From Acidilobaceae archaeon (GTDB taxonomy: Archaea > Thermoproteota > Thermoprotei_A > Sulfolobales > Acidilobaceae): a DNA stretch of 64,000 nt. Numbering within the stretch: the stretch's first letter is position 1; every line of letters starts with the position of its first letter. The DNA is taken from NCBI GenBank assembly GCA_038824665.1, contig JAWBBK010000001.1, positions 320,001 through 384,000 on the forward strand. Reading direction: 5' to 3'. Position numbers and translations under genes: made by a program. Shown piece after piece: positions 2,317-14,202 of the stretch. The notes beneath the pieces were generated by a model. It searched no databases. It saw only the letters and a list, made by a program, of their open reading frames with translations, and was not told the DNA's origin.

Positions 2317-3602
2317 TTCAACTCACCTACTATAGAGGACAAATGTAACTCAAATCCCTCTTCTTTCGCTAAAGGCTCTACTGCTTGAGCTATTCTCTTC
2401 AAAGCCCCACCGTTATCTAGAACTTTCACGCGTCTTCTGAGAGCCAAGAAGTCAAGTGCTGAAAGTCCTCCTCTCCATCGAGCCCATCCTGAAGTAGGCA
2501 GTATGTGGTTAGCTCCAGAGTAATAATCATTGATAGCTGTTGAAACACAACCTTCCACAAGGACTCCGTAGTTTTCAAACGCGTCTGCGAGTTCTAAGGA
2601 GTCACTGCAGACCTCGAGATGTTCTGGAGCTATGAGGTTTATCAGCTCAAAGGCTAGCTCTTTGTTTTTAGCGATAGCTAATTTAGGAGTGCTCAGCTTC
2701 TTTCCACTTGATCTTCTTAAAAACTCTTTATATGCGTCAGCAACCTTCTGGGCTATCTCCGCATCTGTAGTTATAAGAGCTACAGCTGAAGACTCTCCAT
2801 GCTCAGCTTGTGCTAAGAGGTGAAGAGCGATCTCGCGTTCAACACCTTTTTTGTCAACATAGACTACCAGCTCTGTTGGTCCTGCCAGCAAGTCTATACC
2901 TACATCGCGAGAGACCAAGATCTTAGCGGCTGTGTAATAAGGTCCTCCAGGTCCAGCTATCTTGGATACCTTTTCTACGCTTTCAGTCCCATAAGCTAAA
3001 GCGGCTACTCCATAAGCTCCTCCTAAAGCGTAAAGTCCATCAAAACCCGCTACCGCTAGAGAAGCCAGCAGACTTTTCCTTATGGATGCAGGAGGAGCAA
3101 ACGCTACTAGCTTCTTGACTCCAGCAGCCCTAGCAGCTACACCACACATGATGGCAGTCGATATGTATGGAGCAACAGCTCCAGGCACATAGCAGGCAAC
3201 GCTGTCTATCGGCTTAAGCTCTTCTATCACTATTACAGAACTATCTACAGCTATAGTCCAACGAGATCTTGAAAGAGCGGAAAGCGGTTCTTCTACTGCT
3301 TTGGCGCGCTCAGCTAGACCTTCAAGAGCTTCTAGAAGTCGTTTGTTTTCAGATCTTAAGGACTCACGAGCTTTTTCAAGCTTCTCTTTGCTTATATAGA
3401 TGTTTTCTCTGTCTAGTTCTACTTTATCCAGCTTTTTAGCATAGTCTATCAGAGCTTTGTCTCCTCGTTTTTTCACGTCGTAGACTATAGGCTTGACTAT
3501 CTCTATATATTTATCTATGTTCAGCTCTGAGCGAAAGAGTTTGACAAAAGCTTCTACGTCCTCTTTAGACGAGACTCTAAGTAGCTCCACGGGAGCTTTC
3601 AC
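2313..3602 (-). CDS. hisD: Histidinol dehydrogenase
   Basis: YVPG, KIAGPG, AGPTE, QAEH, APEHL and GANHILPT motifs. Confidence 0.96.
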   Translation of the reverse strand: MKAPVELLRVSSKEDVEAFVKLFRSELNIDKYIEIVKPIVYDVKKRGDKALIDYAKKLDKVELDRENIYISKEKLEKARESLRSENKRLLEALEGLAERAKAVEEPLSALSRSRWTIAVDSSVIVIEELKPIDSVACYVPGAVAPYISTAIMCGVAARAAGVKKLVAFAPPASIRKSLLASLAVAGFDGLYALGGAYGVAALAYGTESVEKVSKIAGPGGPYYTAAKILVSRDVGIDLLAGPTELVVYVDKKGVEREIALHLLAQAEHGESSAVALITTDAEIAQKVADAYKEFLRRSSGKKLSTPKLAIAKNKELAFELINLIAPEHLEVCSDSLELADAFENYGVLVEGCVSTAINDYYSGANHILPTSGWARWRGGLSALDFLALRRRVKVLDNGGALKRIAQAVEPLAKEEGFELHLSSIVGELN

Positions 3603-4572
3603 CTAGTTCTTCTAGAGGGATCACGAGTTTAGGCTCATAGACTACAAGGCCTTGCGCTAAAGCTCTCAACAAAGGCATGAGCTTGATGAGGTCTTCCTTT
3701 CCTATCACAGTGTTTATTGCAACCCATTCCGGATCGGCTAGAGGGCTTATAGTTGGACTCTTTAAAGCAGGCAATGCTTTAAGCAACTTCTCTAAGTTAT
3801 CTTTCTTCACGTTCAGGAATACGTGATACTTCCCTTTAGCGTCTACAGCTCCCTTCATTATCGCTAAGAGGTCTAATATTCTCTCTCTTTTCTCTTTGTT
3901 TTTGAGACTCTCCTTATTAGCTATGAGCACAGCTTGAGACTCCATTACGACATCTATTATCTTTAAACCGTTGCTCTCTAGAGTAGTTCCTGTCTCAGAG
4001 ACGTCAATTATTGCGTCAGCTTCATCAGGAGGCTTAGCTTCAGTAGCGCCGAAAGATAAAATCACGCGAACCATATTGTTATCTCCCCATTTGCCCCAAG
4101 GGGTTACAATAAGAGGTCTCAAGGACCCATAGTATTTCTTATAGCTTTCTCTACTGGCTAGAAAGGTTGAAGAGACCACGAGATACTCTGACGATACTCT
4201 TAGAACTCTATTAGAACTTGCAAACTCTTCTATCAGTTCTTCAGCGTTCTCTATCTTCCACTCTTTAGGTATAGCTACGACCAGCTTAACTCTGCCTATA
4301 CCGAGTTCGAGGAGCTTCTCCACTTCGTTTTGAAGTCCGTGTTCGACGACCCAATCGATTCCAGTAATGCCTAAATCGTAAGATCCTTCGTAAACGTAAA
4401 GAGGTATCTCTTGAGGTCTTAAGATCTTAATGCAGATATCAGGATTACCTGCTAGAACCGGCTTATAGCTTCTCTCTCGACCTAGCAGTTGTAGCCCAGC
4501 TCTATCGAAGAACTCAAAGACAGACTTTTCAAGAGAGCCTTTCGGGATAGCAAGCTTAATACGACATGCAAT
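3577..4572 (-). CDS. hisG: ATP phosphoribosyltransferase, long form (start extended to ATT at 4572)
   Basis: KLAIPKGSL, LRPQEIP and YDLGITG lie upstream of the track start; GATE and DVSETGTTL motifs; C-terminal regulatory domain (LPALKSPTISPL). Confidence 0.93.
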   Translation of the reverse strand: MACRIKLAIPKGSLEKSVFEFFDRAGLQLLGRERSYKPVLAGNPDICIKILRPQEIPLYVYEGSYDLGITGIDWVVEHGLQNEVEKLLELGIGRVKLVVAIPKEWKIENAEELIEEFASSNRVLRVSSEYLVVSSTFLASRESYKKYYGSLRPLIVTPWGKWGDNNMVRVILSFGATEAKPPDEADAIIDVSETGTTLESNGLKIIDVVMESQAVLIANKESLKNKEKRERILDLLAIMKGAVDAKGKYHVFLNVKKDNLEKLLKALPALKSPTISPLADPEWVAINTVIGKEDLIKLMPLLRALAQGLVVYEPKLVIPLEELGESSRGAT

Positions 4573-4740
4573 AACTGATCACCTCCACACTTAGAGAGGA
4601 GAACGGCCCTCTAACGACCGAAGTCCTCTCAGAACTCTCGCTAGATTTTATTCCGAGAACTGGGTTGAGATCTGTCTTAGTGAATACACATCATCTCAAC
4701 CGACCCACTCTAAACCCTCTCGAAGCTTATATATCTTTCT
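4573..4740 (-). promoter_or_regulatory. his operon promoter (BRE/TATA) plus structured ~130-nt 5' leader with uORF MMCIH*
   Basis: AGAAAG then TATATAAG (TATA at 4733-4726); three hairpins; ATGATGTGTATTCACTAA at 4694-4677; SD GGAGGTGA before hisG. Confidence 0.6.
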
Positions 4741-4745
4741 CTTGA

Positions 4746-5393
4746 TTAGCTCTTAACGATACTCAAAACTTCTAATACCTTCAATAGCTCGTCGTACTTC
4801 ATCTGTCCTGGAGCGGTAGGCTCATCTACGTACGAGTATATTAGTTTAGAGCCTAGAAGACCGAAAGCTAGTCTTTCCCAGGGGCTAGACCCTATCGGCA
4901 TAACGGCTACGTTGTCATAACCTAAGTCTAAAACCTGAGAGAGCAGACTCTTATAACCTGGCGCAGTTACAACAGCTATCTTCACACAAAAAGCGGAGCT
5001 AGCATATCTCTCGACTGTGCTCAAAACCTCTCTTGCGGTTGGAACTCTGTCTAGATAATGAGCTGACACTATTTTCTCTTCATAAACTACGTTGTGAGAT
5101 TTGAGGAACGATACCTCTACATCGTACATGATCCCCAAGTCATGAAGTCTGTTGAGATATGCAGTCTTTACTTCTGGGCTTAGAGGGTTTACTCCTCCTT
5201 CAGCTACATCTCTTAAAGTCGCTATGATCGGTCTCTTTACAAGCGCTAGAACTTCTGGAGGAATGCTTTCTAGATCCTTCATATAGTCAAGTCTCAGCTC
5301 TACGTAGTCAGGTCCTTTAACGCTTTCTACCTTCACTACGTCTGCGTAAGATCTGACAGGCTTAGAAGCTACGACCAAAGGTCTTCTACTCAA
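4746..5393 (-). CDS. aroD: Type I 3-dehydroquinate dehydratase
   Basis: VELRLDY, IATLR..EGG, VSAH, VKIA and TAPGQ motifs. Confidence 0.93.
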   Translation of the reverse strand: MSRRPLVVASKPVRSYADVVKVESVKGPDYVELRLDYMKDLESIPPEVLALVKRPIIATLRDVAEGGVNPLSPEVKTAYLNRLHDLGIMYDVEVSFLKSHNVVYEEKIVSAHYLDRVPTAREVLSTVERYASSAFCVKIAVVTAPGYKSLLSQVLDLGYDNVAVMPIGSSPWERLAFGLLGSKLIYSYVDEPTAPGQMKYDELLKVLEVLSIVKS

Positions 5394-13379: not shown

Positions 13380-14160
13380 CGTCTACACCCGGTCTCTGAA
13401 CGCTTTTACCCTCAAGAGCTGGAACTCCCTTCATGCGAGTAGTCAGAGCGAAGATCACTGTAGGAGAGTCTGAGTGAAGAGCTCTACTAAGAGCTCTATC
13501 TATGCTCTTTATATCATGTCCATCGCAAACCAATACGTTCCACCCTATGGACTGCCAGACCAAAGGCATATAGTGTTTGGGTTTGACCTTGTCGATAGGA
13601 CCGTCAAGCTGATTGTTGTTGTAATCTACTATGACAACTAGATTGTTTAGCTTTCTGTACGCAGCGTGCGTAATGGCTTCCCAGACTTCTCCCTCGTCTT
13701 GCTCTCCGTCACCCATGATGACATAGACTCTACCTTTACCTTTTCTCATCTTTATAGCTGTAGCTAAGCCGACAGCGAAGCTTAGTCCTTGAGCAAGACT
13801 TCCCGTTGAGGCATCTACGCCAGGTATGCTGATTTCTGGATGTCCTTGAAGTATGCCATTTATTTTGTGCATCTTGTAGAGCTCTTCTTCAGGGATCACT
13901 CCAAGCTCAGCTAACGCTATATAGAGAGTCGGAGCAGCATGACCTTTGCTGAGAACGAACCTATCGCGGTCAATAGCGCTTCCGTCTCTTTTCACATACT
14001 TGAACATAACGACCGTCAATATCTCAACAACGCTTAGAGACGAGCCTAAATGTATAGCCTGATCTATTAAGTAGAGTTCTAAAAGCTTCCTTCTTATCCT
14101 TCTTGCTATTAGCTCAAGAAAACCAACATCTAGAGACGGACTACTCGATATTGGCGGAAT
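13351..14160 (-). CDS. Transketolase N-terminal (TPP-binding) subunit; start uncertain
   Basis: HLGSSLS upstream of the track start; DRFVLSKGH, GSLAQG and GDGEQDEG motifs; no canonical in-frame start upstream of HLGSSLS. Confidence 0.92.
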   Translation of the reverse strand: MPPISSSPSLDVGFLELIARRIRRKLLELYLIDQAIHLGSSLSVVEILTVVMFKYVKRDGSAIDRDRFVLSKGHAAPTLYIALAELGVIPEEELYKMHKINGILQGHPEISIPGVDASTGSLAQGLSFAVGLATAIKMRKGKGRVYVIMGDGEQDEGEVWEAITHAAYRKLNNLVVIVDYNNNQLDGPIDKVKPKHYMPLVWQSIGWNVLVCDGHDIKSIDRALSRALHSDSPTVIFALTTRMKGVPALEGKSVQRPGVDVVREALLYA

Positions 14161-14202
14161 TCCATCCCTTCGAACCCTCTATAGTGGGTAGCTTCGTCTG
14201 AG

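Follow-up and report, generated by a model that had tools for sequence, protein, structure and literature searches.

How could histidine control the hisG gene of an archaeon in which the gene has no normal start codon and the spacer before it encodes a tiny peptide with a single His codon? The question is raised by a 64,000-nt stretch of an Acidilobaceae genome (GCA_038824665.1, contig JAWBBK010000001.1, positions 320,001 to 384,000), which is called the window below. All positions are those of the window, all features are on its minus strand, and SD-like stands for Shine-Dalgarno-like. The answer that we favor, somewhat more strongly than we doubt it, is that the hisG spacer acts as a translated leader that would sense histidyl-tRNA by a programmed +1 frameshift and not as an RNA hairpin switch. 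The following elements are central to this proposal.

3577-4572, minus strand: hisG, encoding the long form of ATP phosphoribosyltransferase (Pfam HisG 3.4e-41, HisG_C 5.1e-18), with ATT at 4572 as the probable start
4677-4694, minus strand: micro upstream open reading frame (uORF) ATG ATG TGT ATT CAC TAA, encoding MMCIH and defining frame 0, with a core that is conserved in the clade
4679-4685, minus strand: proposed +1 shift site A-UUC-AC-U, where AUU would occupy the P site, His CAC the A site, and re-pairing would occur on UUC
4690-4695, minus strand: SD-like element GAUGAU, which overlaps the ATGs, forms a -6.3 kcal/mol duplex with the 16S rRNA 3' tail GAUCACCUCC and ends 4 nt before AUU
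4556-4684, minus strand: leader open reading frame (ORF) in the +1 frame, 43 codons from UUC to TAA (4558-4556), found by three-frame translation

A preliminary description of this DNA had picked out the uORF from the window sequence and proposed checking whether it and its His codon are kept upstream of related hisG genes. Relatives were gathered by hisG protein similarity alone from 41 relatives (13 with a match), from the whole order (11 of 325 genomes at E <= 1e-30) and from metagenome contigs. The clade set contains 16 loci with hisG 60-78% identical, comprising two genomes of the window's genus, six of g30, two of g31 and six metagenome contigs, and these give 13 distinct leaders from three genera. 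An ATG-YGT-ATT-CAC core followed by an in-frame stop, either TAA or TAG, is present in all 16 loci, and the sequence 3' of the uORF is unalignable. Variation within the uORF includes an extra codon in one lineage (CAC ACC TAG), one CGT in place of TGT, and the additional in-frame ATG of the window's genus. An exact 22-mer of the uORF block has no match in metagenome contigs. When up to three mismatches are allowed, a motif search of the window genome (G000) and of G001 returns the hisG leader alone, which argues that the motif is not a multi-operon operator.

The +1 frame downstream of the uORF is open all the way into hisG. When ATTC is read as a single step, the window leader encodes one continuous 45-residue product, MMCITKTDLNPVLGIKSSESSERTSVVRGPFSSLSVEVISYCMSY followed by a stop, from ATG 4694 to TAA 4556, and the other two leader frames contain three and four stops. 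A TGA lies two codons ahead of the UUC codon and there is no ATG, GTG or TTG in the first 32 codons, so ordinary initiation cannot enter this frame in the window. Three-frame translation finds the +1 frame, which reads TGT-GTA-TTC-ACT at the uORF, open from there to the hisG start in 13/13 distinct clade leaders, and frames 0 and +2 have several stops each. Relative to the first base of the hisG ATT, the +1 stop falls at +14 in ten leaders, +8 in two and -5 in one. The leaders are 101, 104, 113, 119, 125, 131 or 132 nt long, with a common phase in all except the 132-nt one, and their +1-frame peptides are unrelated. Contigs assembled from three sequencing runs in two studies span the stretch, as does in part a contig from a fourth run, and none has an indel. 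At position 4606, contigs from two runs of the other study have A for G on the plus strand. This substitution changes CCG to TCG in the +1 frame and creates neither a stop nor an indel, thus keeping the leader frame open.

A related motif exists well beyond this clade. It was found on two contigs (L031 and L033) whose hisG is about 50% identical to that of the window. The 80 genome loci closest to the L033 hisG were then taken, of which 79 have upstream sequence; most are labelled as metagenome-assembled genomes of Bathyarchaeia, one as Wolframiiraptor and a few as Nitrososphaerales, Thorarchaeota or Nanoarchaeia. A TTCAY site with a +1 frame that is open for 23-59 codons and stops within -12 to +30 nt of the hisG start occurs in 75 of the 79. 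The total analyzed here is 94 loci, the 13 distinct clade leaders and 81 further ones. Within the window's order, G010 has ATG TGC GTT CAC GAC TAG and a 66-codon +1 frame ending on the hisG TTG, and G025 has ATG AGC CGG GTT CAC CGC TAG. Other single-site forms also occur, such as TTG-x-G-[DEG]-R-[IV]-H-xx-stop with a +1 frame open to hisG.

Most loci (69/94) carry two sites. A 15-nt unit, GGNGAU-YGY-NUU-CAY, appears twice exactly 19 nt apart, so that a ribosome would have to shift by +1 at the first site to meet the second in phase. The start codon of frame 0 is ATG, GTG or TTG, which interchange at one and the same position, four or five codons ahead of the first NUU. The +1 frame holds the second unit in phase and closes 0-2 codons past its His codon, and the +2 frame then reaches hisG. 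A search of five Bathyarchaeia genomes with the two-site scaffold pattern gives one match in each, always the hisG leader, and no sign of the scaffold for other amino acids in these five. It is an evenly balanced proposition, in our judgment, that histidine synthesis in many archaea of the phylum Thermoproteota (the window's order, Bathyarchaeia, Wolframiiraptor and relatives) is under the control of a "frameshift staircase" of one or two sites resembling that of bacterial prfB, each with a His codon in the A site. To reach the frame bound for hisG on such a staircase, a ribosome would have to miss His-tRNA at each of the steps.

Two kinds of leader stand apart from these patterns. In the Bathyarchaeia loci L144 and L182, the leader tail (NLGEKLWI[NK], then stop) occupies frame 0 and not +2, as though mid-leader one base had been lost or two gained, and these could be assembly indels or natural constitutive variants. 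L010 and L018 (genomes G013 and G023, of the window's family and another genus) have a different hisG leader that extends from about 115 nt upstream to 17 nt inside hisG. It contains a TATA box, a Shine-Dalgarno sequence and a 38-codon in-frame ORF, MAHHRHHSG..., with four His codons among its first seven. This ORF stops inside the hisG start, the downstream part of its peptide is not conserved, and it looks like a more classical His-rich leader peptide.

The frame relations were scored with a rule that is blind to the outcome. It takes the first NTT-CAY no more than seven codons from a start, shifts at each NTT-CAY that is met, and counts a success if translation stops within 15 nt on either side of the hisG start. 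With +1 shifts the rule succeeds at 86/94 loci, compared to 1/94 with no shift and 347/4700 (7.4%) of shuffled leaders. When the site is defined by the motif instead, the stop is within 15 nt of the hisG start in 90/94 loci, as translational coupling would call for, and the window's TAA is at 14 nt after the first ATT base. Over 93 loci the frame along the proposed path has 0 stops versus 373 and 359 in the other frames. The sites in this last count were picked by outcome, and the blind rule is the fair test. By blastn, the variable parts of the leaders form 29 groups that have no similarity to one another. Distant hisG loci (L034-L104) were tried as a control and are uninformative, since a real upstream gene adjoins hisG in 50 of the 67 "positives". 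A genome-wide hunt for start-less frames with NTT sites proved too noisy, owing to small genes and antisense frames, and was not used.

Could the long leader ORF start on its own, at a canonical or noncanonical codon, and be coupled to hisG without any frameshift, with the short His uORF modulating it by occupancy? We regard this as unlikely, yet as the least improbable of the alternatives. It expects the same openness and His avoidance in the long frame. Candidate starts exist in the L109 group, which has an ATG 27 nt upstream in the long frame, and in L105-110, which have TTG, GTG or ATG 15-27 nt downstream of the site. But the long frame has no canonical start upstream of the site in G000, G001, L105-107, L111-112 and L031, and likewise none in L114, L116, L118-121, L125, L127, L128, L131, L133, L134 and L136-138, and in the window it is closed by the TGA two codons before UUC. 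Independent initiation also leaves unexplained the exact +1 phase of the second site, the invariance of NUU-C and the SD-like element 3-4 nt before the P-site codon.

Several observations weigh against the frameshift proposal. In most two-site Bathyarchaeia loci the final frame contains a GTG and a TTG, at 42 and 24 nt before the second site, and the long ORF of these loci could have its own start. Shifts of -1 under the blind rule succeed at 64/94 loci. These are all two-site loci, in which a single -1 shift leads to the same frame as two +1 shifts; at one-site loci, the window included, the count is 0/25. The blind rule with +1 shifts misses eight loci. The frame is broken mid-leader in L144 and L182 (possibly by indel errors), the stop falls 30-34 nt short in L123 and L126, and chance NTT-CAY triplets lead the rule astray in the other four. 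No site is present at one related locus (L030, hisG 49% identical), and several hisG genes of the window's order that lie inside operons lack a leader altogether. The 5' leader of the uORF would be only about 8-14 nt long and would have no well-spaced Shine-Dalgarno sequence, and none of the sequencing runs that hold the leader stretch is recorded as RNA. Finally, open frames that abut gene starts are common genome-wide, due to small genes, and openness alone is therefore weak evidence.

The nucleotides of the site are more strongly fixed than its coding content. In 91/91 distinct contexts NUU-CAY keeps its U, U, C and A, while the first base of NUU can be G, A or C and the E-site codon can be TGC, TGT, CGC, CGA, CAA, AGT or TAC, which indicates a constraint on nucleotides rather than on the peptide. 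The A-site codon is His CAY at every site, and we assume that it is decoded slowly under starvation. An SD-like duplex of -4 kcal/mol or better at positions -14 to -3 is found at 162/162 sites, compared to 7.5% of 7735 background windows, with G at -8 in 97% of sites and at -6 in 87%. The anti-Shine-Dalgarno used here was read in a sister genome because the only 16S rRNA gene of the window genome (contig C3, 122901-123879) is cut by a contig end and covers model positions 4-857. The tRNAs of the window genome include Ile(GAU), Val(GAC), Leu(GAG) and a single tRNA-His(GUG). The three tRNAs with G34 that read NUU through a G.U pair would gain a G-C pair on UUC. A re-pairable NUU in the P site, an SD-like stimulator upstream and an open +1 frame whose zero frame is soon closed are features that these sites have in common with a prfB-type site.

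The same comparison bears on a uORF that arrests its own ribosome in the manner of TnaC or the arginine attenuator, in which M(M)CIH would sense free histidine and stall at termination. In favor of this, no or almost no sense codon follows the His in the window's clade, and the same is true of the second site in most two-site leaders. However, the residue before Ile/Val/Leu-His varies (C, R, Q, S or Y), two to seven codons precede the His, and in two-site leaders the frame runs on for 9-17 codons past the first site. Conservation is higher at the wobble positions of NUU and CAY than in the amino acids, and there is no conserved peptide, which together make peptide arrest highly improbable.

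The position of the motif relative to the promoter raises another alternative, in which the motif is a protein-binding site and the reading frames are incidental. It might be an operator just past the transcription start or an RNA repeat for a histidine-binding protein of the TRAP or HutP type. The promoter element concerned is the following.

4726-4733, minus strand: TATA box TATATAAG of the his promoter, read in the sequence, with an A-rich stretch resembling a B recognition element immediately 5'

This box was already assigned in the preliminary description and agrees letter by letter with the minus strand. By-eye counts put the TATA-like box 33-37 nt from the uORF ATG-TGT in every clade leader, and we infer that the 5' end of the his transcript is about 10-14 nt ahead of the uORF ATG. 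This fixed distance would suit a binding site, as would the near-palindrome GTGTATTCAC, the direct repeat that the 15-nt motif forms in Bathyarchaeia, and the uniqueness of the motif in each genome, like that of a dedicated operator. A binding site does not account for the ever-present start codon that switches among ATG, GTG and TTG, the stops right behind the His codon, or the stop-free and His-poor frame of 100-170 nt that reaches the hisG start in 29 unalignable groups. It also fails to explain the contrast between 86/94 and 1/94 under the shift rule, and we consider it very unlikely.

Other conserved promoter features were seen in passing. The g30 leaders (L105-L110, L025-L029 and L091) have a perfect palindrome, ATGCTTATAAGCAT, in the TATA region. 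In L141-L193, a promoter-proximal TTTATTAGG-N13-CAGGTG-N7-AGTG is conserved about 10-45 nt 5' of the uORF. The AGTG in it, some 25 nt past the TATA box, may be where the transcript begins, and the frame of its GTG depends on the lineage.

A frame that is read when His-tRNA is scarce should avoid His codons. This prediction, made after the discovery of the site, agrees with the sequences: the shifted frame has 16 His codons versus 39.4 expected among 29 group representatives (Poisson 2e-5), and over the 93 loci it has 18 versus 82 and 113 in the other two frames. The depletion is incomplete, and the 1-3 His codons that remain in the shifted frame of 9/29 groups count against the proposal.

The beginning of hisG is itself unusual, and involves two more elements.

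4577-4586, minus strand: hisG Shine-Dalgarno GGAGGTGATC, a 10-nt perfect complement of the 16S 3' tail that ends 4 nt before ATT
4565-4574, minus strand: invariant block TTATTGCATG, which contains the ATT start of hisG, an out-of-frame TTG-CAT (a start codon and then a His codon) and an out-of-frame ATG

The preliminary description needs a correction here: the Shine-Dalgarno sequence of hisG is at 4586-4577, and the hisG frame opens at ATT 4572. In-frame ATG, GTG and TTG codons are absent from the window before 4323, and in 6/13 distinct clade leaders the hisG frame lacks a canonical start all the way from the upstream stop to codon 24. The block TTATTGCATG is identical in 13/13 distinct clade leaders, with ATT 7 nt after GGTG. 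Variation at the wobble base of the Cys codon (TGT or TGC) implies that the ATT frame is coding, and hisG probably begins at ATT 4572. If so, this weak AUU start would make hisG dependent on delivered ribosomes. A choice between UUG and AUU at hisG initiation that is gated by His through the invariant A-UUG-CAU is conceivable. As a separate observation, the block occurs in the window, L002, L105-L112 and L025-L029, its out-of-frame ATG opens an ORF of 1-4 codons, and the wobble base of its GCA is invariant. We also considered a fusion of the leader peptide to HisG through a further shift near ATT and set it aside, as inspection by eye shows no plausible re-pairing site there.

Under the frameshift proposal, the micro-uORF is presumably translated. 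Ribosomes would initiate at its ATG and read Met-(Met)-Cys-Ile, which would leave AUU in the P site and the His codon CAC waiting in the A site. With plentiful His-tRNA, His would be added, translation would stop at once at UAA, and a 110-nt leader would be left untranslated. When His-tRNA is scarce, the empty A site could let tRNA-Ile(GAU) slip forward by one base, from AUU, where it is held by a G.U wobble pair, to UUC, where it gains a G-C pair. The SD-like element a few bases upstream would aid the slip, as in bacterial prfB. The shifted ribosome would then read a His-free and otherwise meaningless frame of 43 codons that ends 14 nt inside hisG. Its arrival might turn hisG on by coupled re-initiation at the weak AUU with its perfect Shine-Dalgarno sequence, or alternatively the nascent leader may be shielded from premature termination or decay. 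Two chained sites would give a steeper response. What the sequences show is that the site, its frame relations, the SD-like element and the avoidance of His codons are conserved; translation of the uORF, the shift, its dependence on His-tRNA and the route to hisG expression are inferences.

The preliminary description saw a structured leader with three hairpins, P1 to P3. It proposed that His-dependent stalling on the uORF re-partners them in order to mask or free the hisG Shine-Dalgarno sequence or to form a terminator. Two of the hairpins have the following locations.

4663-4701, minus strand: hairpin P1, 9 + 9 bp around the uORF, in the minimum free energy (MFE) fold, with a 3' arm that is not kept in the sister species
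4594-4630, minus strand: hairpin P3 (GAGAGGA...TCCTCTC), inside the +1 leader ORF, with a sequence that is not kept in any relative

The arms themselves are real. P1 has GGTTGAGAT (4701-4693) and ATCTCAACC (4671-4663), its 5' arm overlaps the uORF, and both P3 (4630-4594) and the two copies of GTTCTC are present in the sequence. Nevertheless, the folding potential of this region is unexceptional. The MFE of the spacer (186 nt folded) has z = -0.91, with 30 of 200 shuffles folding equally well or better, and that of the 142-nt leader has z = -1.28, compared to -1.02 to +1.24 for six other clade leaders. RNAalifold on seven leaders yields only three invariant pairs, no covarying pair and no consensus helix. 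In the sister species (hisG 78% identical) the P2/P3 region is unalignable and a 22-nt block over the uORF is identical. The claim of a structured leader is thus not borne out. The proposed partner swap between P2 and P3 is likewise unsupported, as these hairpins are neither beyond shuffled controls nor kept in the sister species.

The hallmarks of a hisL-type attenuator are likewise missing. There is no run of at least five T in the leader (4573-4735) that could serve as a U tract, consecutive His codons are replaced by one in the window uORF and by one per site at no more than two sites in relatives, and neither the shuffles nor the seven-leader alignment support conserved, mutually exclusive terminator and antiterminator hairpins. 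A scan of 4200-5200 on both strands against Rfam 15 has no match at E <= 10 to the T-box or any other curated family. Hairpin attenuation also leaves the open +1 frame, the 19-nt phase of the doubled sites and the depletion of His codons unaccounted for. The absent conservation largely refutes it, and we consider it as improbable as peptide arrest. We dropped by eye an unrelated candidate, a C/D-box small RNA (AUGAUGU ... CUGA), since a D box is missing from the sister species and the elements are wrongly spaced.

What survives from the preliminary description is therefore part of its observation and part of its interpretation. Its uORF is a real feature and conserved, and its hairpins are incidental. 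Its view of His-dependent control finds support insofar as the conserved uORF with its His codon is the key element, not in the hairpins as effector, and sensing of His-tRNA through a leader ORF is likely, probably by a prfB-like +1 frameshift. The caveat that the uORF has only one His codon is correct as a count, and the design of the site would answer it in place of more codons. A further concern, that these elements belong to the 3' untranslated region of aroD, does not hold for the uORF, which precedes hisG in g30 and g31 where there is no aroD upstream.

The proposed site resembles known recoding signals in its parts. The bacterial prfB site, AGG GGG UAU CUU UGA C, has an SD-like element, a 3-nt spacer, CUU and a slow stop codon. 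The hisG leaders share with it a P-site NUU, an internal SD-like element and a continuing +1 frame, and their A-site codon would likewise be slow, with its decoder as the sensed quantity. They differ in that the A site has a sense codon (His), and what is sensed would be an aminoacyl-tRNA instead of a release factor. They are also archaeal, the shifted peptide is not conserved, the output would be expression of the next gene, and many relatives have two chained sites. In bacteria prfB, the gene for release factor 2, is autoregulated by a programmed +1 frameshift (compare PMC10798248).

A short ORF ahead of the first his gene, with His-tRNA read through the behavior of ribosomes at His codons, is also the arrangement of the hisL attenuator. 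That of Escherichia coli has seven His codons. Here, in contrast, there is one per site with no conserved terminator or antiterminator hairpins and no U tract, and the proposed effector is a change of frame. To our knowledge, the regulation of amino acid biosynthesis in archaea is poorly understood and attenuation by leader translation is not established there. If the proposal is correct, archaea would meet the problem of the bacterial his attenuator with a reading-frame change that delivers ribosomes rather than with an RNA fold, and gene finders would have a reason why hisG lacks a normal start codon here.

Slippage of a P-site tRNA while the A site awaits a scarce aminoacyl-tRNA is known as hungry-codon frameshifting, for example at the Ty1 site CUU AGG C. 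In Ty1 and E. coli it is a trick of transposon expression or an error, whereas in the hisG leaders it would be a dedicated and conserved amino acid sensor, the first natural one built on this principle. Starvation-induced shifts in E. coli are treated in two reviews (PMC5009743 and PMC8211752), and the first of these, from 2016, calls the extent and role of hungry-codon frameshifting in natural starvation unclear. The hisG leaders would answer how far it matters there, and they would provide a compact and portable aminoacyl-tRNA sensor in which two chained sites act as a built-in AND gate.

Frameshifting serves as both the sensor and the effector of a regulatory circuit in antizyme (a +1 shift that senses polyamines) and, as reported, in the uORF of Caenorhabditis elegans zip-2 (PMC11831180). 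Both are eukaryotic, with other signals and shift sites and no tie to a biosynthetic operon or to translational coupling. Cys-responsive leaderless short ORFs in mycobacteria are similar in that very short 5'-proximal ORFs rich in cognate codons control downstream genes of an operon; they differ in that they are bacterial and use poly-Cys runs with no change of frame (bioRxiv 10.1101/834739). For archaea, a 2021 review of recoding names a single cellular gene with a -1 shift, some viral cases and one suspected case in a chelatase, and neither "histidine" nor "hisG" occurs in it (PMC8211752). Ours would add a +1 case to that list, and with it programmed +1 frameshifting would be reported for the first time in a cellular gene of an archaeon. 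No description of a hisG frameshift leader was found by full-text searches, a scope that excludes subscription journals and supplements.

The leader lies between two biosynthetic operons on the window's minus strand. The upstream aro operon encodes transketolase halves, chorismate mutase/prephenate dehydrogenase, DAHP synthase, aroB, aroE, aroC, a GHMP kinase, aroA and aroD. After aroD comes the 173-nt spacer and then hisG, hisD, hisC and hisB. The gene that borders the spacer is as follows.

4746-5393, minus strand: aroD, a type I 3-dehydroquinase (Pfam DHquinase_I 3.8e-15) and the final gene of the upstream aro operon

The aro operon, too, comes with a conserved leader peptide, which is rich in aromatic residues and is encoded at 14109-14181 of the window (minus strand); it was compared with L203-L206. 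The +1 rule does not fit this leader. Its peptide overlaps the start of the first gene, that for the N-terminal half of transketolase, which in the window's genus has no canonical start (ATA where g30 has ATG) and is in the -1 frame of the aro uORF. The peptides, each followed by a stop, are MEFRQYRVVRL in the window, MEFRQYLAL in the sister species, MEFQYQW... in two g30 genomes and MEYQYR in G010.

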